From assembly GCA_026770705.1 (NCBI GenBank), contig JANJGN010000036.1:3286001-3350000 (forward strand): 64,000 nt of DNA. Direction: 5' to 3'. The notes under the pieces were generated by a model. The model was not told the origin of the DNA and did no database searches. It saw only the letters and a list, made by a program, of their open reading frames with translations. Shown here one piece after another: positions 26,231 through 60,899 of this stretch. Each line of letters starts with the position of its first letter. Positions within the stretch are counted from its first letter, which is position 1. Made by a program: the position numbers and the translations under genes. The stretch comes from Isurus oxyrinchus (taxonomy: Eukaryota).

Positions 26231-29200
26231 TTTAATGTTCAGGGTTGTTCTTGCTCCATTTCGGCCCTTCTCTCTCTCTTTATCTTCCTCTCTCATTGTA
26301 TGTTTTGCCTTCTCTCAACTCATCTGCCTGACTCTCTCTCTCACTACTCACCGGACCTCTTTTTCTTCTCTCACCCCTTCTCTCCCTCTCCCTCTCTTGC
26401 CATCCCTCTTCTCTCTCCCCTGTCTGTTTCTTTCTCTCTCTCTCTCATCCCAACACATTTCCTCTCTTTCACCCTGACTCTGTCTCTCTATCTCTCCATT
26501 TCCCTCTCTTGTCCTGTCTCTGTGTGTGTGTCTCTCTCTCCCTCTTGCCCAATCTTTCGCTCACATCCCACTGCTTTTTCTCTCTTGCATGTCTCTCTGT
26601 CTCTCCCTAACACTTGCCCCTTCCCCCTCTCTCACTCCTGCTCTGTCTCTCTCTCTTACCCTGTCTCATTCCTTCTGTCTCTCTCCAGCCCCTTTTCTCT
26701 GCCACCCTAAACCCTTAATTCTGTTTCTCTTTCTAGCTCACCTCACTCCTTTAGCTATCAAACCTTCCCATCTATCTGTCTCTCTCTATCACTACATCTC
26801 TTCTTCTGTCACTTAATCACGTCTCTTTAACTCTCTCCTTCACCCTGTCTCTCTGCCCCCTTTCCCTCTCAACCCGTCTCTCTGTCACTCTCTCTCTCTC
26901 ACCCTGTCTCTCTGTCGCCCTCTCTCTGGCCCTGTCTCTCTCTCTCTCTTTCTCACCCATTCTCTCTCTGTCTCTCTCTCATTGTCCCTCTCCCTTTCCC
27001 TGTCCCTTTTTATCCAAAATTGGATGTGAAGATGAAGGGAAAATATTTTCAGGGTGATGGAGAAAGGGCAGAGGAGTGCATTGTACAGTATGTGTGAATG
27101 TGTCTCTGTAAGTGTGTATGTGTGTTGTTGTCAGCGTGTGTCTGTTNNNNNNNNNNNNNNNNNNNNNNNNNNNNNNNNNNNNNNNNNNNNNNNNNNNNNN
27201 NNNNNNNNNNNNNNNNNNNNNNNNNNNNNNNNNNNNNNNNNNNNNNNNNNNNNNNNNNNNNNNNNNNNNNNNNNNNNNNNNNNNNNNNNNNNNNNNNNNN
27301 NNNNNNNNNNNNNNNNNNNNNNNNNNNNNNNNNNNNNNNNNNNNNNNNNNNNNNNNNNNNNNNNNNNNNNNNNNNNNNNNTATGTCTGTCGTGTCTTCTG
27401 ACGTATCTCCCAGTCTCCTGTCAATTCCTGCCCTGCCTGGTGAAGACATCTAAAGAATTCAAGTTAAATACAACCTCATTTCCCTCCCTCCCCTCTGAAC
27501 TCTGTTTCTAACCCGTGCTGTCCCAGTCCTGTGAGTGTTTGATGGGGAGAGTGTGGAGTGAGATTTACTCTGTATCTAACCCCGTGCTGTACCTGTCCTG
27601 GGAGTGTAAGATGGGGACAGTTCAGAGTGCTATTTAAGATGCTTCTAACCCTTTGCTGTACATGGCCTGAGAGTGTTTGATGTGCACAGGTTAGTGGCAA
27701 TTTTGCCTGTCTGTAATCCCATGTTGTAACAGCTCTGGGAGTGTTTAAGAAGACATTGTAGGTGGAGATTCATTCTGTATCTAACACTGTGCTGCATATG
27801 CCCTGTGAGTGTTTTATCCAGGGAGGTTAACTCTGTATCTAAACTCATGCTGTAGCTCTCCTGAGAGTGTTCGATGAGGACAATTTAGATGGAACTTTAC
27901 TCTGTATCTAATCTCATACTGTACACGTCCTGGGACAGTTTCACAGGCTAGCTTGGACAGACAGAGCTTTCCGCTGTACCAAACCTATGCAATATATGAG
28001 CTGGGAATTTTGATGGGACAGTGTAAATGGAGAGGTCTGGGATATCTTCATGTGGAGGAGATAACATCTCACATTCTCACCCAACACAAAAGCATTCCAC
28101 AAAGCAGGGCTCACAAATTGAACATGAGTTTCTGGGTTTTCTTGTTTGATTATTCCTGGTCTGTTCTGATTCTCTGATAGTTTTGTGGTGCTTATCCTCC
28201 ACATGAGCAGTCGTTCTAATCCCTGGTACCTGCTCTGCTCCAAAACACACCATCTGACTGCAATAAGGCAAGTGATACAGGGGCGTCTCAGTGAGTGAGA
28301 CATGTGAATCTTGAGCCTGATCCAGGTGTATGTGAGTGACTCCGGTTAATCCGACACTACAGAGACAGTTTAGGCGGTTTGAGTGCAATGCAGCTTTGGC
28401 AGAATGAGACCTGGATTCCAAGGGTTAAATGACAAAGTGAGGATTGCACAATCTCGGGTTGTATTGCCTGAAATTTAGCAGCATCAGGGATGATTTGACC
28501 AAGCTGTCACAGTATGAACCCTTTTCCTGTGAAACAACCTTTCGTCAGACACCTTATGGAATCCCTTTTGAAAATCCAAGTATCCATCCATCACTAGCTC
28601 TCTGTCTCTCGCTCACCCTCTGGGGCTGTATCTCTCTCACCATCTCTTTGTCTGATGTTTAAAATTTTTCTCTCACCTCATTTTGGATGTGTGGCAATAA
28701 CAATTGTGAAACAATATTCTAAATCTGCTTTAACTGTATTTACTGCGCATGTTCGCAACTTGTCAGAGACAGAAAAAAAGAGAGAGAGAAGGGGAGAGGA
28801 AGACAGAGAGGGAAGGAGAAATTGAGTTAGAAATGGAGAGGGAGAGAGAAGGGAATGAATGTGAGGGGGGAGAGAAAGAGAAAAGTACAGAGAGAGAGAG
28901 AAGGAAGTATAGACGGACGGAGAGTGAGGAGAAACTTCCATGGAAATCCCATTTTCTGATCAGTGATCTCCTTCAGAATTACAATCACATCAGTCAAACA
29001 GGATTTCCCTTTAACAAAACTATACTGGCGTCCACTGCTCAGTTCACATTGCTGAAGACTCCATCCGCCCTATCCTTAATGACAGATTCTAAAAACTCCC
29101 CCACAAATGGCGATACACTGAGAGGTCCGTGGTTACCTGGTCGTCCTTTCCCCCGCCCCTCTTAAGCCTGTCAGATCGGAAAGATTGTGTATAGTTCCCG

Positions 29201-29835
29201 ACACCTCATTACATAAAGCATCCATTGGAAGGGGCGCAGCACAGATTAACCATCGTGTTACTGGGAATCCATGGTTTAAATTACGAGGGGGAGTTACATA
29301 GTTTGGCTTCGCTGAACTGGGGATTATTAAGGGAGGATATGAGAGAGATTTTGAGCATTTGGGAAAAAGTAAAGGGGTAAATAGAGAGAAAATACTCTCT
29401 TGATAAGGGGGACGTCCAAAACCAGGAGACATGTCTTTAAAATTAATAAATCCAATGGGGAATTCAGGAGAAATTTATTAAACCAGAGAATGGTTAGAAT
29501 GTGGAATTCGCTCCCCAGGGAGCGGTTGAGTCCGACGCACAGACACATATTTCCCTATTTCTCTTTTATGTAATTCTATGTATTATTGCCTGAGCTGCCA
29601 TTATTCTCTATCAGTCCTCTCAATGTCTCTTTAAGTGTTGAATAATAATGGAGAACTCTTAAGTTCATGGCTGTATTTCATGTTTATTCGGAGCTTCTGT
29701 TCACAAACACTACAAGGTCGTTGTCTAAAGAGGGAATTTATTCCCATCCTACAAGCAGAGAGAATTTACACTGGGGACAATTCGACAGGATATTTCGAGT
29801 CACAAAGTCGGACACTCATTTCACTCGCTTCCGAT

Positions 29836-29985: not shown

Positions 29986-30314
29986 TCAGAGTGAGCAATC
30001 GCTGAAGCTGATGGTGTTGAGAAGGGGTGAGTTCAGGGAGCCGTGGTTGACACTGCAGGAATATCTGGAGCCCTTCTTCCAGTCAGTGGCTGGGACTCTC
30101 AGGTAACTGCTCAGGCTGTAGGTTTGATCGCTGTCCGGGGACACAACGCTTGTCCTTACTCCGCTGTCTGTCTCTTTGCCATCCACACTCCAGAGGACCC
30201 GCACGAAACCCGGCTTAAAGCCACTCACCAGGCAGGACAGAGTGGCCGAACCTGAGTCTATCTCTTTCGAAGAAGGAGGGAGAAGAAGGACGGATGGCCT
30301 TCGATCCTCAGTAC
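29986..30314 (-). CDS. Ig light chain constant exon (C1-set), type I / sigma-cart-like
   Basis: CAG acceptor ending at 30315; phase-1 join with J gives Ser. TEDRRPSVLLLPPS...ATLSCLVSGFKPG...W...YSLSSYL...W...YSCSVNH...SDCSL* includes the near-terminal interchain Cys; TGA at 29988-29986. Confidence 0.96.
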
Positions 30315-31793: not shown

Positions 31794-31830
31794 TTCGAAC
31801 ATTCAAGGTGGTCCCACCTCCGAAGATCCA
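31794..31830 (-). CDS. Ig light chain J segment (WIFGGGTTLNVR-S)
   Basis: FGxG motif, 12 codons plus 1 nt, followed by a consensus donor GTAAGT at 31793. Too short for the ORF track. Confidence 0.95.
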
Positions 31831-31869
31831 CACAGAGCGGCGGTGCAATCGGACGGGTCATCTGAAACT
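31831..31869 (+). other. J recombination signal sequence (23-bp spacer, non-consensus)
   Basis: Reading away from J: CACAGAG (31831-31837), exactly 23 nt, then TCTGAAACT (31861-31869; 5/9 match to ACAAAAACC with the central AAA-C kept). Complements the V 12-RSS. Confidence 0.82.
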
Positions 31870-32188
31870 CAGGCTGCGGGGAAAAGTACAGGATGAAATA
31901 TTAATAACCTCTCTTTTATCACATTCCCTGTCACATTCTGCCTTTCACATGGGCTAGAACACAGAGAACAAGAGAGATATTTCAAAAATAGCGTGAAACC
32001 CTGATAATAGTCATCGTTACTGACCAGGGTAATATTGAGAACCGCTATTGAGAAAATGCAAATTAACCCTTGGAATCTCAGTTAAATTTCTCAAGAACTT
32101 ACACAAGGAACACTTTGGAAGTTGATGACATATTCTCGGCCAGGAACACTGCAGCTGCTGTTGTAATTCTGAGCGGTTTTCTACATAC

Positions 32189-32216
32189 AGTTTTTGTATG
32201 GCTCTGTCTCACTGTG
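32189..32216 (-). other. V recombination signal sequence (12-bp spacer)
   Basis: Minus strand reads CACAGTG (32216-32210), 12 nt (32209-32198), then ACAAAAACT (32197-32189). Confidence 0.96.
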
Positions 32217-32542
32217 CACGCCTGCTGAGCTATCCCAGACCTGACAGTAATAGACGGCGGAGTCACCGGACTCCAGGCTTCCAATGGTCAAAATGAAATT
32301 GTTCCTGGAGGTATCTCTCGAAGGTTGAAAACGGTCGGTGAAGCCGGTGCCTCGAATGACGCTCCCACCTGTGCTCTGATATAGCACCCAGACGGGAGCT
32401 TCACCGGGTCGCTGCCGGTACCAGCGCACATTGAAGCTCCCCACATTCCCGTTCTGCATCCCGCACTGTAATCGGGCGGTCTGACCAGCGGAGACTGGGT
32501 CGGAAATTGGGGACTGATTGAGGACGGGAACCGCCAGGACAC
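32217..32542 (-). CDS. Ig light chain V exon, type I / NS5 / sigma-cart-like
   Basis: Pyrimidine tract and AG acceptor ending at 32543. Open frame VLAVPVLNQSPISDPVSAGQTARLQC...WYRQRPGEAP...DRF...LTIGSLESGDSAVYYCQVWDSSAGV has both cysteines, WYxQ and DxAxYYC, and is directly followed by an RSS heptamer. The isotype call comes from recalled similarity to shark type I chains, not from an alignment. Confidence 0.96.
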
Positions 32543-32688: not shown

Positions 32689-32737
32689 CTGTTAAATGGA
32701 GCAGCAGAGCCCACACGAGATGCAGCACTGGAGCCAT
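32689..32737 (-). CDS. Ig light chain leader exon (MAPVLHLVWALLLHLT-G)
   Basis: ATG at 32737, 16 mostly hydrophobic codons plus 1 nt, then donor GTCAGA at 32688. Phase-1 splice restores Gly (G|GT) with the V exon, the standard split-leader arrangement. Confidence 0.92.
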
Positions 32738-32840: not shown

Positions 32841-32863
32841 CATTTATGTAGCAGAATGCAAAT
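32841..32863 (-). promoter_or_regulatory. Ig light chain V promoter: octamer and TATA-like element
   Basis: ATTTGCAT on the coding strand (32863-32856, light-chain orientation), then TACATAAAT (32850-32842), about 105-125 nt upstream of the leader ATG. Confidence 0.85.
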
Positions 32864-39470: not shown

Positions 39471-40169
39471 CTGTGGAGGCAGAGCCTAACACGTCAAATG
39501 GTTTTGGAAAATCTGGATGTCAGCCAGGGGTGGAGTTAAGACAGGGCAATACATTTTACTCATGTTTGGATCACGCTGCTGGTTTAATTTATGTTTGAGT
39601 TGTGCTGGGGTTGCAGTGAGCTGTTTGGCTGGTGTGTGCTACAAGTTATCAGAGTTATGTTAATGGAGGGCCAATCACTCATGCTGCATCTTGCAACCCT
39701 CTTTTCTAGAGATCAGACCCCAGCAGCAAATGGGGTCCCTCTTCCTTGGACAGGATTTCCACACTCAGTAAGTGGCTTTTGACAGGATGTTGTAAGGTGA
39801 TCAGTTGTTTTGAGGGTGGATGTGGCATTATCTACGCAGCCTGCAGGTGATGACAGCCCAAGCCATTCAGCCCATTGATCTGTGTTATCCCTCTGAAATA
39901 GCTCCCTGCTCACCCTTAGTCTACACTCCCCTCAGCTCTTAAACTGTTATTTTTGAAAAACTGTTCAATTTCCTTTTAAGATGTATTCGCAATTCTGTTC
40001 CAAGAGAGCAAGTCCCTGACTAGTAACCCATTGTCTAAAAGATATTATCCTCTCCTCTTCCTCAATTATTTTTGGCAATGATTTTAACTCAATAGTGGCC
40101 AATGTAACCATCTCTGAAGAGAGCTCGGGTGGAGGGGGGGCGGTGATAATAAAAAGCTCTGACTGAAAG

Positions 40170-41160
40170 TAAGCAGTAATGAGGAGATAAAGAATCCGCA
40201 AAGGGAGCTAAACTGCTCAGTTGATTGGGTGAGAAAGTGGCAGAATGAGTGTAATGTTATGAAATGTGACGTTTTGCTTGGGGGTGCAAAGAATAGATAC
40301 GCAGGGTCTTTGTAAAAGTTGAGGGACTTGGAAATACTGGTACTCTGAGGGATTGGGTGCCCTTGTAAACTTAACGCAGGAACGAACAATCAGGGACAGC
40401 AAGCACATTAGGGAGGTAAATCGTTTGTTCAGGCTCATTGCGAGGAGGGTTGGAGTAGTTTAAGATTAAGGGGAATCTGAGTGTAATTGTAGAATGTGTT
40501 ACTGAGACAGTACCTGGACCTTATCTGGAATAATGTGTGCAGTTTTGCTCTACTTACCTAAGGAAGGATGCACTTGCCTGAGAGGGAGTGCAATGCGTGT
40601 TCACTGGGTTGATTCCTTGGATGAGAGGATTGTCATATGATAAGAGATTGAATAGAATGGTTCTATATCCTCAGGAGTTTAGAAGAAATATTGATGATCT
40701 CATTGAAAAGTGTAAAATTATCGGAGAGTTTGACTGGGCAGATGTTGAGAGGCTTTTCCAGCCCCGTTATCCCCAGCCCCCCAACACCGCCTCCCTGCCT
40801 TGGCTGGTGTGTTCAGGACTCAGGATCACAGTCTCAGGATTATGAGTCAGCTACTTAGGGCTGGGTTATGGAGAAAATTCTTCACGCAGTGTTGTGAAGC
40901 TTTGGAATTCTCCATCCCTGGGAGCTGTGGGTGCTCAGTCACTGAGTATATCCAATGCAGAGATACGAGAATATAGAGTTGAGTGACTGCGTATATTCAA
41001 TGCTGACATCAATAGATTAATACACACTAAGGGAATTAAGGGATGTGGAGATAAGGCAGGGAGGTGGCGTTGAATTAGACGATCGCCCATAATCTTATTG
41101 AATGGTGGAGAAGGCGCAAAGGGCCAAAAATCCTCCTCCTGCTCTAATTCCTGATGTTCT
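40170..41160 (+). mobile_element. CR1-type LINE 3' fragment
   Basis: FTGLIPWMRGLSYDKRLNRM...DLIE remnant plus 3' UTR. Confidence 0.82.
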
Positions 41161-41430
41161 TTTGTGTGAAGGTCGGTGTGGGGTGTACAATAAGTCTTGT
41201 TGATTTAAAGACTGCTTTAGACCTTCATACATTTATCAGTCCAGTTGAAACCACGACAGTGATGATTCACATTTTCCAGCAACCAGGCCCCAGTCTGTAG
41301 CTGAAAGCAGCACTGAAAGCAGCTCAGCCCCTCTCTATCCACTCACACACAACGTGGCTGGTGCTTCAAAGGTCTTAATTTAGCTCCTAATACCGAATGG
41401 TTGCTTTTTTTGGCCTGTTTGTGAAGTAGT

Positions 41431-41584
41431 GCAGGTGTTGTGGTCATTCACCTCAGGCAAAGGGGGAGAGCGTCACAGGAGGAGGAACTGAAACCTTTCT
41501 GTTCACTGGCCGATTAGCAGCCAAGGGTGACAGCATCTGTCCCCAGCTTCCACACTCTGAAATTTCACAGAAGCGGCTGTGGTT
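41431..41584. promoter_or_regulatory. Candidate B-cell enhancer (EICE, E-boxes, RUNX)
   Basis: GCAGGTG 41431-41437, TGTGGT 41439-41444, CGTCA 41471-41475, GGAACTGAAA 41484-41493, CATCTG 41534-41539, TGTGGTT 41578-41584, in an island between repeats. Function is inferred from motifs only. Confidence 0.5.
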
Positions 41585-41904
41585 TCACACAGGAAAACGA
41601 CAGAAATCTCAGAGGCACATTTGAACCCGACATTCTTGGACACCTTGCACTTTACAGAAACTGACAACCCAATGTGGGCCGGGCCACACAAAAACAACCA
41701 GCAAAACTCCTATTATTTATCCCCTGGACTGTCTCACTCTTCACTTCTCGACGCTGTTTCCAAACAAACCTGCCTCATAACCTAACTCGCACCAAGTATC
41801 ATTCACTCATCAAACCACCCCAGCCTGTGGTCCCTGCTTTGCTTAGGCTCGCAGTTATGCCATGCCTTGATTTTAAACTGTTCATCTTTGCTTTGAAATC
41901 CCAC

Positions 41905-42860
41905 TAGTCTCTCTCCCCTCCCTATCTCTGTAAAAGTTTTCCAGCCCCTACAGACCACCCTGTTCCTGTAACCTCCTCATGCCTCCATACATCTTCTAAT
42001 CTCTGTGACCTGATCAAGCACTGCACACCTCTCAATCTCTGTAACTTCCTCCAGACCCTACATCATTCCCTCTCTGTGACATATTCAAACCAGTACAAAC
42101 CTCCCTATCTCTGTAACTTTATCCAGCACCCACCCNNNNNNNNNNNNNNNNNNNNNNNNNNNNNNNNNNNNNNNNNNNNNNNNNNNNNNNNNNNNNNNNN
42201 NNNNNNNNNNNNNNNNNNNNNNNNNNNNNNNNNNNNNNNNNNNNNNNNNNNNNNNNNNNNNNNNNNNNNNNNNNNNNNNNNNNNNNNCGTTCTCCCAAAC
42301 CTATATCACTCCCTATCTCTTTAGGCTTCCTCCATCTCCTAAAATACTCCCTCTCCCTGTAACCATCTCAGACCAGTACACCCCTCAGAATCTCTGGAAT
42401 CCTCTAAGACACCAACTGTTTCTGTAAACACCTTCAGTCCTTACAGCCCTCCATATAACTGTATATTCCAATAGCCCCTACACCACTCCTTTTCTCTGTA
42501 ATGACCTCCAGTGCCAAAAACCCTCCCTACCTCTATAACCTGATGCAGCAGCTACAATGCTCCCTATCTCTGTGACTTGATTAAGCCACTGCAGCCCTCT
42601 TTACCTCTGTAACGTTCTTCAGACCTTTCATCACTCCCTTACTCTGTGAATTCCTCCATCCCCTCAATCCTGCCTCCTAATTCTTTAACTTTCTCCAGCC
42701 CACACCCCCCAAACAGCCCGGTCTCAGTATCCCTGCTCCAGCCGCTACACACCTCCATATCTGTCTAACCTACTAGAACCGCTCTAATACTCCTTATTCC
42801 TGTACCCTCTGCAACCATCACAACTTTCCCTATGCATGTAACCTCCTCCAACCACTGAAA
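41905..42860 (+). repeat. Degenerate ~35-40-bp tandem repeat (CCCTATCTCTGTAACCTCCTCCAGCCCCTACA-like), interrupted by the CR1 and resuming at about 44790-44970
   Basis: Recurrent CTCTGTAAC...CTCCAGCCCC motif on both sides of the LINE. Confidence 0.8.
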
Positions 42861-42864
42861 CAAT

Positions 42865-44785
42865 ACAAATTGGCCAGAAAAAAACAACAGACCTGAGGAT
42901 TGGGAGCAGTTTAGAATTCAGCAATGGAGGACCAAATCATTGATTAAGAAGGGGAAAATACATTACAAGAGTAAGCTTGCAGGGAACATAAAATCTGCCT
43001 GTAAAAGTTTCTATAGGTAGTGTGGAGAAAAAGATTGGTGAAGACAAATGTAGGTCCCTTACAGTCAAAAACAGGGGAAATCATAATGGAGAATAAAGAA
43101 ATAGCTGACCAACTAAATACATACTTTGGTTCTGTCTTCACAAAGGAGGACACGAATAACATATCAGAAATGTTGGGGAACACGGGGTTTAGTGAGAGGG
43201 AGGAATTGAAAGAAATCAGTATTAGTCGGGAAATGGTGTTGAGAAATTTGATGGGATTGAAGGCCGATAAATCCCCGGCACCTGATAATCTACATCCCAG
43301 AGTAATTAAGGAAGTGGCCCAAGAAATAGTGGCTACATTGATGGATGGTCATCTTCCAAGATTCTATAGACTCTGGAACAGTTCCTACAGGTTGGAGGGT
43401 AGCTAATGTAACTCCACTGTTTAAAAAGGGAGACAGAGAGAAAACAGGGAATTATCGACGAGTCCGCCTGACGTCGGTAGTGGGGAAAATTCTAGAGTGC
43501 ATTATAAAAGATTTAATAGCTGAGCACGTGGAAAGCAGTGGCAGAATCAGACATGGTCAGCATGGATTTATGAAAGGGAAATCATGCTTGACAAATCTAC
43601 TGGAATTTTTAGAGGATGTAACTAGTAGAGTTGATGAGGGGGAGCCAGTGAATGTGGTTTATTTGCACTTTCATAAGACTTTCATCAAAGTCCCACATAA
43701 GAGATTAGCACGTAAAATTTAAGCACATGGAATTCAGGGTAGTGTATTGAGATGGACAGAAAACTGTTTGAAAGACAGGAAACAAAGAGTGGTCTTAAAC
43801 GGTTCATTTTCTGAATGGCAGGCAGTGACTAGTGGGGTACCACAGGGATCGGTGCTGGGACCCCAGTTATTCACAATATATATTAATGATTTAAATGAGG
43901 GAATTCAATGCAATATTTCCAAATTTGCAGATGACACAAAGCTGGATGGGAAGGTGAGCTGTGAGGAGGATGCAGAGATGCTTCAGTGTGATTTGGACAG
44001 CTGAGTGATTGGGCAAATCCATGGCAGATGCAGTATAATGTGGATAAATGTGAGATTATCCATTTTGGTAGCAAAAACATGAAGGCAGATAATTATCTGA
44101 ATGCCGAGAAATTAGGAGAGGAGAATGTGCATCGAGACCTGGGTGTCCTTGTACTCCAGTCACTGAAGGTAAGCATGCAGGTGCAGCAGGCGCTAAAGAA
44201 GGCAAATGGTATGTTGGTCTTCATAGCCAGATGATTCGAGTACAGGAACAGGGATGTCTTGCTGCAGTTGCACAGGACCTTGGTGAGACCACACCTGGAA
44301 TACTGTGTGCAGTTTTGGCTCCTTATCTGAGGAATGATGTTCCTGCTATAGAGGGAGTGCAGCAAATGTTTACCCAACTGATTCCTGGAATGGCGGGACT
44401 GACATACAAGGAGAGATTGATTTGATTAGGATTATATTTGCTGGAGTTCGGGACAAGACAGCGGCGATGATGGTGGAGTCGAGAATCAGGAGTCACAGTC
44501 TGAGGATATGGGGTAGACCATTTAGGGCTGAGATGAGGAGAAACCCCTTCACCCAAAGACTGGTGAGCCTGTGGAGTTCGTTACCACAGAAAATAGATGA
44601 GACCAAAACATTATATCTTTTCAAGAAAGATGTAGATATTGCTCTTGGGGTGAAAAGGATCAAAAGATATGGGGAGAAAGTGGGAGCAGGCTATTGAGTT
44701 GATCAGCCATGATCATAATGAATAGTGGGGCAGGCTTGAAGGGCCGAATGGCCTACTGCTGCACCTAGTTTCTATGTTTCTATGA
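42865..44785 (+). mobile_element. CR1-type LINE, 5'-truncated, degenerate ORF2 (reverse transcriptase)
   Basis: Frameshifted ORFs contain KSPAPDNLHPR, WRVANVTPLFKKG, QHGFMKGKSCLTNL, SGVPQGSVLGP, SKFADDTKL; 3' tail TTTCTATGTTTCTATG. Confidence 0.95.
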
Positions 44786-45730: not shown

Positions 45731-46156
45731 ATGGAAGGCAAAGGCCATCTTAGGACAGGGTACCTGAAGAAGGAGAGATTTAAGATCATGAGGATTCTGG
45801 ACACTCGGAGACGGTGAGAAACTATTTGTGCCTTTTGAGTATAACAACATTGTTAGCATCTTATCAGTCAATACAGGCTGCAAAATATATTCTATGAATC
45901 CAGGCTTGTAATATCCAGACAAGCAGATACACACAAACTCAGGTATACAAATACAGACAGACAGACACAGACACACATGAGAGAATAATTCCCATATGTC
46001 ACATATCTGTTTTCCTTCCTTAGGTCTGGGGATGAAAACTCTCCTCAGTAATCCAGGTGTTCTCTCAGCAAAACACTTGCAGCAAGATGTGCTTACTCTT
46101 AAACTCCAACCCCTTTGCAATGAAGGCCAAAAGTTCATTTACCTTTCTCTTGGTTA

Positions 46157-46362
46157 CCCCTCGATTAGATTCTAGTCTGTAACTCACTCCCAGGTACCTG
46201 TTATTCTACATATTAACCATCCCGAACCCCTTGATTAGATTCTAGTCTGTAACTCACTCCCGGGCATATGTTAACTGATATATAAACCACCACAAACCTT
46301 TCTATTAGATTCCAGTCTGTAACTCACTCCTGGGTATCTGTTATTCTATATATAAACCACCT
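46157..46362 (+). repeat. ~70-bp tandem repeat, 3 copies
   Basis: GATTAGATTCTAGTCTGTAACTCACTCCC.GG...TGTTATTCTA.ATATAAACCA x3. Confidence 0.88.
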
Positions 46363-57769: not shown

Positions 57770-60308
57770 TCAATTGTTTTTATTCTTAACAAATTTAACA
57801 ATCACCAGAATCGGATATATCAACACGCTCTTGAACTGTTCTCTGAACCTGCTCTGGATCACTCCATAAATAAAGGTGTTTGTGCAGGAACTGAAATTCA
57901 GCAGCATAAACCTGATATGCTCAAAAAAGTAATCTAAGAGAGTTGTTCCTTCTATGTTATAATATAAGAATTCTGCAACAAATGGCAGCCACATGAGAAA
58001 GAAGCTGCCTAAAATTGTGAAGAGTAAAATAACGGACTTCCTTCTGCTCTTCATTTCTGGGTCACTGCGGCTCTCTCCATTGTTCTGACCCCTCAGAGCC
58101 TTACAGACTCTGCTGGCTACTAATATGTGTCTGACTGTAAGAATATTAAGCAGTAATATTAGAACACATGGGAGAAATGGTGCTAACATTATATCAAACC
58201 AGTCCAAAGCCATCCAACCAAGCTCAATAAAAAGTTTGGCTTAACAGAACAAAACCAGGGCGTATTGTCAATTATCTCCACAGGTTCATATATAAAATAC
58301 CAAGCAGCGCTTTTTAAACTCATCAGAATGCACGTCATTGCTATAATTATAGACACAGTTTCCTTTGTGCAATATTTTGTTCTCTGCTTTTGGCAACAGA
58401 TGGCGATGAAACGATCAAACGAGAAACTAATGGTTAACCAAACTGAGCTCGATGCATGAGTCAGAACAGCGATAGCACTGCACACATGGGTAAGGGAGAG
58501 TAAAGACCCAGGTATAGTTAATAACCCACCGAAATAATATGATTTCATTCATACTAACCAGTAGATCCGTCACCACCTTTGCCAGCATGTAGCTAGTGAT
58601 ACATTTGGAAAGACCACACTTTCCCCGGGTCAGTGTCACCATTGCAATGAAGTTAACTGTAAAAGAGAATGAGAGAGAAGTTGGGGGGAGGAGAGAGAAA
58701 TGATACAGGAAGTTAATGATACATCTCAACAGCGAATTCTAAAAACCTGATTCTAAAAATATTGCGTTTGACTTTGGGGAGATTTCAGTCTTTCCATCCA
58801 AGTTTATAAAAGCGCACTGAGGTAGATCATTCAGAAAGATTAGAAACAAAACTCTGAGTCTCTCAGATTCCTGTTTCATTCTCAATTACTGGCTGGTCTC
58901 TTCAACCTAAGACCATGCCTCAAACTAATTCTTCAAACTAATGAATGTGGAGATTGTTCAGATAATTTCAGAATGTAGTGAAATGCATTTAAATGTATTA
59001 TGTTGCATTTTAGTAAGAAACCGTTGAAGTAATATTATTAGTATCATGGAGAACAAAAGTGGTTCTTGATCACTTTAGAAAAAAATCACTAAATTTGGAG
59101 GTCCATGTTCATAAATACATTACACGTATAAAGAGTAGCATCTGGAATGATATATCTGGAAAGATACAATTGAAAAGAGGGAAATATATGTTAAAGCTGC
59201 TGACGAATCTTGTTTAGACGACATGCGGAGTGTTGCTTGCATAAGGGCGCTTTGGAGAAACAGCAAAAATGATTTATAAGGAAATGAATGATTATTTCTA
59301 TCGTGAAGGAATTAACCGACTGTTTTCCTTTCTCGAATATAAGCGGCTAGAGATGACCTAACCAAAGAATTCAGTTGGAGAAACTATGATTGTTTCAGTG
59401 AAGAAAGTCTATTGTGGAAAGCTTTCTTGGAGATTGACAAAATTGTGTTAGGAATAGACACGTGAGGCAATGGGAATTCAGCCCCTATTGACAGAGGTAC
59501 AAAGACTACTTCATGCTGTGAGTGGTAATGACCTGGAACTCACATTCCAAGGATGGTGGCAGCGGAGAGAATGAATTATTACAAAAAGACATTCACTGAG
59601 GCAAATAATCTGACAGGCAAACACCGGAGTCAGGGTTTTACATGCGTTACTCTAATATAACGGGTATGCTCTCCATGGTCGAATGACCTTCTTCCGTGTT
59701 TTAATAATTCTATGGGTCTATGATTCTGGGAGACACCTGGACCTGTGTCAGATACGCATATAATAAAATAAGATTTCATCCGGGGTATAAACCCTAAACA
59801 CACTGAATACCCAATTAAACTGAATACCATGATTTGGGAGAGATTCCTGATCTCGGCTTCGTAACACTGAGACCGTGTGATTTTCAATTAACTATCGCTG
59901 GAAGCATATTTGTGAAGAAATTTTTCAGAAATGCTGCGTTGCTCAATATGAAACCGCATTAGCCCCTGATAATTGTCAGATAATTGTTCCTCTGCCAGGA
60001 TTTTGTTCCCAGTGCATTTAATATCGAGGCTAATCCAGTTGCATCATCAGAGTTGGAAATACACAGATAATTTCAAATCTTATGGGGAGATTAAAAGAGC
60101 GAAGAAGAGCGTTAATTCCTTTCATCTTGCACCAACTGAACAGAGCAAAGAGCTGAGAGGGGAAAAATGAGGCGACAGAAATATTGCCACTTGCATCAGC
60201 ACAATTATACATCATTAACAGATTAAATAAAAACTCACCAGGAACTCCAACTGCTGCGAGACAAGGATAGTAAATGTGCTCTATCGGAAGAATGGATGCA
60301 TATCCCAT
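57770..60308 (-). pseudogene. GPR139/GPR142-like class A GPCR, two coding exons, frameshifted
   Basis: Exon 1 60308-60239 (MGYASILPIEHIYYPCLAAVGVP-G|gtgag). Exon 2 from 58656 (VNFIAMVTLTRGKCGLSKCIT...SVWLTISFSFDRFIAICCQK...KSRRKSVILLF...SSCTNTFIYG...FREQ) to the stop at 57770. The frame is broken at about 58513 and about 58231, so three ORF-track entries tile one 7TM protein. Confidence 0.88.
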
Positions 60309-60899
60309 GGTTGAGAAACACTGAAGCCGGTTGTGCTGAATCCACAGCTCCAATGGGCGCGCCGAGATTCAGCATTTGAAGAAGCCTTGATTTAAAGACA
60401 TCTTAAACCTGCTCTGGTCCGGCTAATCCCCAGATCATTGCTATTAGATACACTCACATAAACAAACAATTTGCATCAGAAGCTTTGATTGCAATGCGAA
60501 TAACAATGTCGTGCAAAACACAAACATCTCCAGCTGCAGGTTGTTATTTTTAGAAACCATTTAGTTGGAATCGCGCTAAAAAACTAAGCCTGCAGAGTCG
60601 ATCCAACAATAATTAATCAATCGCATTGGGCTTTCATTCTGTGAAGCCCCTTCTCTCCTGCGGGCACATTGTTAAATGTTAATGATCACTTCGTAAATTG
60701 TACATTGTGCCCAGGGATCTGTTCCACTGCTTCCATGTCAAGATGCAACGTCTCAGATCCTGACCCGAAGTCCATTGAAGGCCTGGTCCATGAGCGTAGT
60801 CTAGAAATTACTGCCATTGATGCCAGGAGGAGAACAATGAACACACTCTGTTGACATTCCTCTCTCCGTCACATCCCTGCTGCTTCCACATTAGCTCAA

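Follow-up and report, generated by a model that had tools for sequence, protein, structure and literature searches.

A candidate B-cell enhancer linked to type I (sigma-2) light-chain clusters of the shark Isurus oxyrinchus

Shark antibody genes are arranged as many small clusters of variable (V), joining (J), and constant (C) segments, and models in which each B cell chooses one cluster invoke a promoter-enhancer complex (PMC2435157). Does an individual cluster carry an enhancer of its own? No enhancer for cluster choice is mapped, and no shark immunoglobulin (Ig) enhancer described, in the literature searched; most subscription journals and bioRxiv supplements lay outside that search, and a prior description may exist. 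We analyzed a 64,000-nucleotide stretch of Isurus oxyrinchus DNA (NCBI GenBank assembly GCA_026770705.1, contig JANJGN010000036.1, positions 3,286,001 to 3,350,000 of the forward strand; hereafter, the window), which contains one light-chain cluster and, upstream of its V, a group of motifs at window positions 41431 to 41584 that a first-pass annotation had read as a cluster-specific B-cell enhancer. This low-copy, non-coding element appears to have been duplicated with each intact type I (sigma-2) cluster and is likely that cluster's own B-cell enhancer; the position upstream of V, the linkage of the copies to clusters with an open V, and the retention of the motifs are the main support.

The element and its copies

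The element comprises two E-boxes, two RUNX words, a cAMP response element (CRE) half-site, and an Ets-IRF composite element (EICE). In the following lines, own copies are the nine full copies in this genome, and organism B is a second species in which two copy classes were found.

41399 to 41514, no strand assigned: conserved core of the candidate, holding an E-box, a RUNX word, and the EICE; one contig common to both organism B classes in runs X6 and X7, few variable columns in the nine own copies
41414 to 41816, no strand assigned: wider low-variation block; 20 variable columns among the nine own copies, fewer than in any other 400-column window over about 10 kb upstream
41175 to 41445, no strand assigned: left flank; its four old paralogs (74%), at other sites of the contig, contain none of the motifs
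41431 to 41437, + strand: E-box GCAGGTG, E2A-type; the same in 9/9 own copies and organism B
41439 to 41444, + strand: RUNX word TGTGGT; the same in 9/9 own copies and organism B
41471 to 41475, + strand: CRE half-site CGTCA; broken in 3/9 own copies, and at 41473 in all four organism B runs of the second comparison
41482 to 41494, + strand: EICE GAGGAACTGAAAC; the same in 9/9 own copies, no listed change in organism B
41534 to 41539, + strand: E-box CATCTG, 40 bp past the IRF half-site; the same in 9/9 own copies and both organism B classes
41578 to 41584, + strand: second RUNX word TGTGGTT; the same in 9/9 own copies, whereas class 2 of organism B has changes at 41581 and 41582

Each of the six motifs named by the first-pass annotation was located in the window sequence on the + strand, at the position given for it. 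The EICE fits the consensus GGAAnnGAAA (PMC13757776) and has a purine-rich 5′ flank. The annotation had also placed the motifs in apparently unique sequence between repeats, which is correct for 41205 to 41729, a low-copy segment with repeat-rich flanks in the contig depth profile, but has to be qualified for the left part, where the four old paralogs align up to about 41445 and contain none of the motifs. These paralogs lie in inverted orientation, 38–50 kb from light-chain genes; the idea that they are remnants of light-chain clusters was rejected, as neither of the two regions examined has a light-chain gene where one would be expected. Other identities for the element were also considered: a non-coding RNA was rejected (a single weak Rfam match, outside the element, with E 0.053), a coding exon gave no lead (longest stop-free stretch, 74 aa), and an origin of the EICE from a long interspersed nuclear element (LINE) is not supported, the flanks being unlike LINE and the depth low, though LINE coding sequence has the same core.

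A DNA search with 41170 to 41760 as the query, by a method that skips very common words, returned 13 matches for 13 candidates, all on contig C36, which carries the window: nine full (95–100%) and four partial (74%, left part only). The nine full copies, at C36:1.9-3.7 Mb, pair one-to-one with nine open V and C exons, and gaps between V and the element in four of the eight other copies leave the element intact. The element is linked one-to-one to intact type I light-chain clusters. Two older clusters (V 81–83%, with stop codons) align only to window position 39525 and lack it; it is absent as well from a 72% remnant light-chain cluster. A dispersed repeat unlinked to Ig loci, which the first-pass annotation had named as one outcome that would undo its reading, is contradicted by the confinement of all 13 matches to C36, by the nine full copies beside light-chain clusters, and by low depth in organism B. 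At C36:1.49, 1.59, 1.67, 0.70, 1.06, 2.26, and 3.18 Mb are further old type I clusters, broken or partial, which occur in both orientations and have 46–95% protein identity.

The cluster in the window lies on the − strand, with octamer, leader, V, recombination signal sequence (RSS), J, and C in that order.

32856 to 32863, − strand: octamer of the V promoter, the predicted target of the element
32689 to 32737, − strand: leader exon
32217 to 32542, − strand: V exon of a type I (sigma-2) light chain, open; 12-bp-spacer RSS at 32216
31794 to 31830, − strand: J segment WIFGGGTTLNVR, unjoined
29986 to 30314, − strand: C exon of the light chain, open

Measured to the octamer (32863), the EICE lies 8,619 bp upstream, in an orientation opposite to that of the gene, in agreement with the first-pass figure of about 8.6 kb 5′ of the V promoter. 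The window V matches a skate 'type I immunoglobulin light chain' at 64% and horn shark chains at 74–77%. Its closest named relatives are shark and ray chains, type I among them, and V and J are split, which assigns the cluster to type I by similarity; type I is synonymous with sigma-2 and NS5 (PMC5192425). The J recombination signal (31862 to 31870) is non-canonical in both nonamer and heptamer. No conserved island 3′ of C was found in 28001 to 29600.

Genes of other kinds lie nearby. V-like plus C1-set Ig-superfamily genes, which share about 30% identity with the light chain, stand inside the light-chain array at C36:3750354-3751079, 1732652, and 3172453. A rhodopsin-family G-protein-coupled receptor (GPCR) gene of two exons occupies window positions 57770 to 60368 on the − strand, its exon 2 scattered over three frames; its coding sequence contains the sole other GGAACTGAAA of the window (57887).

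Motif retention and chance expectation

Among the 12,086 columns aligned in all nine own copies, 10.4% of the non-coding background was variable. Five motifs (39 bases) had no variable column (p 0.014–0.03), and one of 44 bases varied when the CRE half-site was included (p 0.05). Over the block from 41401 to 41800, 21 of 397 columns were variable, for a nominal p of 1e-4, and exclusion of CpG sites gave a like result. The first-pass annotation had proposed a check for recurrence near other type I clusters with the motifs preferentially kept; this is what the nine copies show for the EICE, E-box, and RUNX core, kept above its flanks, but the CRE half-site and the second RUNX word are not conserved, and the former is probably a late change.

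A search of sequencing runs for the element listed 16 rows outside its four top carriers, 15 of them from organism B; no RNA run was among those listed, which speaks neither for nor against expression. For organism B, 5 of 15 runs were compared (X11, X6, X10, X9, and X7), the first comparison displaying 40 of 387 differences. The two copy classes differ from the window by about 2% and about 10% in the listed pieces (180/1,774 for class 2), and neither has a listed change in either E-box, the first RUNX word, or the EICE. In X6 and X7, a single 117-bp contig spans 41399 to 41514 for both classes, though about 20 of 255 flanking sites (about 8%) differ between them (p 8e-5, assuming neutrality and no conversion). 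One change within 41485 to 41514 went unlisted, as do changes near contig ends; we infer that it is at 41510, not in the EICE, because 5/9 own copies have that state. Variation is lower than in the flanks in both species, a pattern that may reflect constraint and is to be read with a scan-corrected p of 0.007–0.10 and with gene conversion as a possible contributor.

The motif combination is also uncommon. The 13-mer occurs once in the window as against 0.18 expected at up to one mismatch, and the strict combination, an EICE that has an E-box no more than 60 bp away and a RUNX word no more than 100 bp away, is met a single time here but in none of 150 simulated windows drawn from 4-letter-context statistics. 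For such a composite within 10 kb of a given promoter, the chance p is about 0.001–0.004, from flank rates in other stretches (both E-box and RUNX in 2.5% of flanks); the patterns were picked after the site was seen, which makes these p-values optimistic. Genome-wide, RGGAASTGAAAS has 15,340 matches (1 per 324 kb), and an EICE with CATCTG within 10–40 bp occurs 102 times, of which 9 are copies of the element and 93 are unrelated. A LINE fragment with a reverse-transcriptase match lies at window positions 43017 to 44697, and related copies contain the EICE core in their codons, which raises the count of that word across the genome. Given that the patterns are post hoc and that LINE coding sequence is a source of this core, the rarity of the composite is suggestive only.

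A kappa-like counterpart and known enhancers

A second, unrelated element of similar composition was found at other light-chain clusters; the isotype labels used here (kappa-, lambda-, IgM-, IgW-, and IgNAR-like) are those that we take to fit the translations. The kappa-like clusters at C16:85.8-88.5 Mb contain 28 copies of an element with a RUNX word, an EICE 75 bp on, and a CAGCTG 14 bp later. Its core EICE is intact in all 27 copies that hold it (the copies being 97–99% alike), and in the near flank the alignment of 11 copies is confined to a 440-bp island surrounding the EICE (−272 to +168). A V was found in three of four kappa-like clusters examined, with the element or a remnant 1.5–8 kb upstream of it in the same orientation as the gene; the distance given for the element is 1.9–8 kb to the V exon, and the fourth cluster showed no V. 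In one of the three clusters with a V, the promoter also has an EICE, next to a CRE and a variant octamer. Like the sigma-2 element, the kappa-like element combines RUNX, EICE, and a downstream E-box, lies upstream of V, and occurs once per cluster; the two differ in the Ets half (GGAAGT in the kappa-like, GGAACT in the sigma-2 element) and in orientation relative to the gene (same and opposite, respectively). No sequence homology of the sigma-2 element to the kappa-like element or to other Ig loci was found by blastn (best E 0.07).

Across 120 stretches of 10 kb, we counted 30 strict EICEs and the composite in 12 stretches: eight sigma-2, three kappa-like, and one on contig C783. A composite hit at one of nine locus types has a chance of about 0.04 at a loose rate. 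The last of the 12 (C783:120969; strict EICE, E-box, and RUNX) lies 25.6 kb 3′ of a sigma-like C exon, with one copy examined. In IgNAR-like clusters, a PU box (10/11) and CAGCTG (11/11) are kept 2 kb after J in the J-C intron, in copies down to 71% identity, and may mark an intronic enhancer in which the IRF half-site is not conserved. Another V-C family of light-chain-like genes occurs at C326:546729-551270 and C38:9608333; it is 45–47% to the window V and has numerous V copies on C38, C42, C49, and C100.

The layout of the sigma-2 element can be set beside those of light-chain enhancers described in other vertebrates. The Ig lambda enhancers of mammals and chicken (E-lambda 3-1 and 2-4 of mouse, IgL E of human and chicken) likewise have E-boxes on both sides of the PU.1-IRF4 site, the second of them 36–45 bp after the IRF half-site (mouse 36, human 45, and 40 bp in the shark element), and the PU.1-IRF4 composite of mouse lambda 3-1 is identical to the shark element over 13 letters (PMC3972084). 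A 13-letter likeness to mouse lambda 3-1 in the spacer was set aside as chance, being absent in mouse 2-4, human, and organism B class 2. Unlike the lambda enhancers, the shark element lacks NF-kB, has MEF2 with a mismatch and a RUNX word adjoining the first E-box, lies upstream of V rather than 3′ of C, occurs once per cluster, and has no alignable homology to them outside the motifs.

The mouse Ig kappa 3′ enhancer contains the identical 12-letter PU.1-IRF4 core GAGGAACTGAAA with CATCTG downstream, but the E-box there is 15 bp away, as opposed to 40 bp (PMC3972084). The mammalian enhancer lies 3′ of kappa C, whereas the shark element lies upstream of sigma-2 V and its CRE half-site is non-conserved. 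The first-pass description of a kappa-3′-enhancer-like core stands for the 12-letter core and CATCTG and falls for the spacing, which is lambda-like. Judged from sequence, the layout (40 bp, flanking E-boxes) is closer to the lambda enhancers than to the kappa 3′ enhancer; by position and spacing the element likely falls outside the kappa 3′ family, and it likely works in the manner of an EICE light-chain enhancer. It is the shark kappa-like element whose E-box, 14 bp after the EICE, comes within one base of the kappa 3′ spacing (15 bp). The mouse Igk V-region enhancers E88 and kRE1 also lie on the V side of J-C and are active from the pre-B stage, but they organize a 3.2-Mb translocon, whereas the shark element would serve a single V-J-C unit (PMC9263370).

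Beyond the motifs, no sequence homology of the shark element to mammalian enhancers was found. Shared ancestry with those enhancers, or descent from the jawed-vertebrate ancestor, to which the first-pass annotation had conditionally dated this control, is not supported, because the two shark elements also lack homology to each other and motifs this short may evolve more than once.

Alternatives, predicted function, and meaning

How well does an enhancer specific to the cluster withstand the observations that weigh against it? Several of these concern the strength of the variation signal. The copies are young (95–99% alike), which gives low statistical power; the scan-corrected p for 41401 to 41800 is 0.007, 0.035, and 0.10 with blocks of 1, 20, and 50; windows of 150 and 300 columns are not significantly low in variation; and windows centered on the EICE reach only the bottom 4–9% of the ranking. 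Gene conversion may be the cause of the low variation: the contig shared by both organism B classes is longer in X10, and this difference in tract length between runs suggests conversion, while in X9 the classes differ at 3–4 sites within the core (p 0.05). In organism B, moreover, the CRE half-site is broken in all four runs of the second comparison, the second RUNX word is changed in class 2, and the copies are tied to light-chain genes by collinear flanks only. As to composition, no NF-kB site is present in 41150 to 41850 at up to one mismatch, the only MEF2 candidate is a one-mismatch word about 100 bp upstream of the PU.1 site, in a variable stretch, and LINE coding sequence that spells the 12-letter core raises the background. 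As to linkage, the two element-less pseudogene clusters probably count as one event because they are near-identical to each other, and one kappa-like copy (C16:86622047-86622453) has lost EICE and E-box to a 190-bp deletion with V and C still open. Elsewhere the composite is absent from the IgM-like (90 kb), IgW-like (80 kb), lambda-like (200 kb), and C326/C38 light-chain-like (90 kb) stretches examined, which cover one to a few clusters each, and from the region upstream of the C783 V; the IgNAR-like intron site (C38:7639753) was rejected as a third EICE, the full EICE being present in only 2/11 copies and only the PU box and CAGCTG kept.

Many of these points are what one would expect of a neutral passenger, that is, a chance motif cluster in unique DNA that was spread by recent segmental duplication and owes its low variation to conversion or rate noise. 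Two other windows upstream, 42811 to 43213 and 45857 to 46262, are nearly as invariant, and the youth of the copies, the upper scan p, the conversion-like tract differences, the LINE-seeded frequency of EICE words with their 93 unrelated CATCTG pairs, and the post hoc choice of patterns all accord with it. Against this explanation, the low variation coincides with the motif block in both species, an independent composite stands on the same side of V at the kappa-like clusters, and the element is not recognizably repeat-derived, with low depth and no match to other loci. We regard a neutral passenger as unlikely, and as the most serious of the alternatives.

A true PU.1-IRF8/RUNX enhancer might instead be myeloid or pan-leukocyte and act on another gene of the duplicated unit, either the GPCR gene, 16 kb off, or a nearby V-C1 gene of the array. 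Irf4 and Irf8 do mark shark myeloid clusters as well (PMC10529500), but the V promoter is closer, at 8.6 kb, the GPCR exon 2 is spread over three frames, the only V-C1 gene found in the window is the light chain, and the kappa-like element has the same grammar on another contig. Flanking E2A-type boxes generally point to lymphocytes, and we consider this explanation quite improbable. Least probable of all is a light-chain element devoted mainly to somatic hypermutation or recombination access rather than to transcription, as the default for EICE light-chain enhancers is a transcriptional role at the same site. In chicken cells, hypermutation is activated, with negligible transcriptional effect, by Ig enhancers that combine an E-box with PU.1-IRF4 and putative CBF sites, but those elements also need NF-kB and MEF2 sites (PMC3972084), which are absent or imperfect here.

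If the element is the cluster's own enhancer, the EICE would be bound by PU.1 or Spi-B together with IRF4 or IRF8, both E-boxes by E2A-type factors, and the neighboring RUNX word by RUNX, a prediction made because mammalian and chicken light-chain enhancers use such sites. PU.1 and Spi-B are present in cartilaginous fish. The genome encodes IRF4-subfamily DNA-binding domains at two IRF loci, both with IRF4 as the best solved-structure match, though the second may be IRF4 or IRF8; irf8 is expressed in shark B cells (PMC11372145) and Irf4 in shark plasma cells (PMC10529500). Light-chain recombination is assisted by PU.1 and IRF4, which bind EICEs at the lambda enhancers and the kappa 3′ enhancer (PMC13757776), and E-box, PU.1-IRF4, and putative CBF sites drive both enhancer and hypermutation activity of Ig enhancers (PMC3972084). 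Once bound, the complex would contact the octamer promoter by looping and make the short V-J-C unit accessible for its transcription and for the joining of V to J, possibly with a further role in targeting hypermutation. A site upstream of V would outlast deletional V-J joining and could act as an autonomous switch for each cluster.

More tentatively, and in our view less likely than not, at least two light-chain isotypes may each have their own RUNX-EICE-E-box enhancer upstream of V. On that proposal, PU.1-IRF/E2A control would predate the split of sharks from bony fish, the upstream enhancer would make clusters autonomous and its loss would start their decay, and the mammalian kappa and lambda 3′ enhancers would be the same code, relocated or rebuilt. 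The two short, non-homologous candidates (sigma-2 and kappa-like), together with the natural element-less clusters as controls, make the question of cluster choice directly testable. If the candidates are active, a PU.1-IRF/E-protein light-chain code would be common to sharks and tetrapods.
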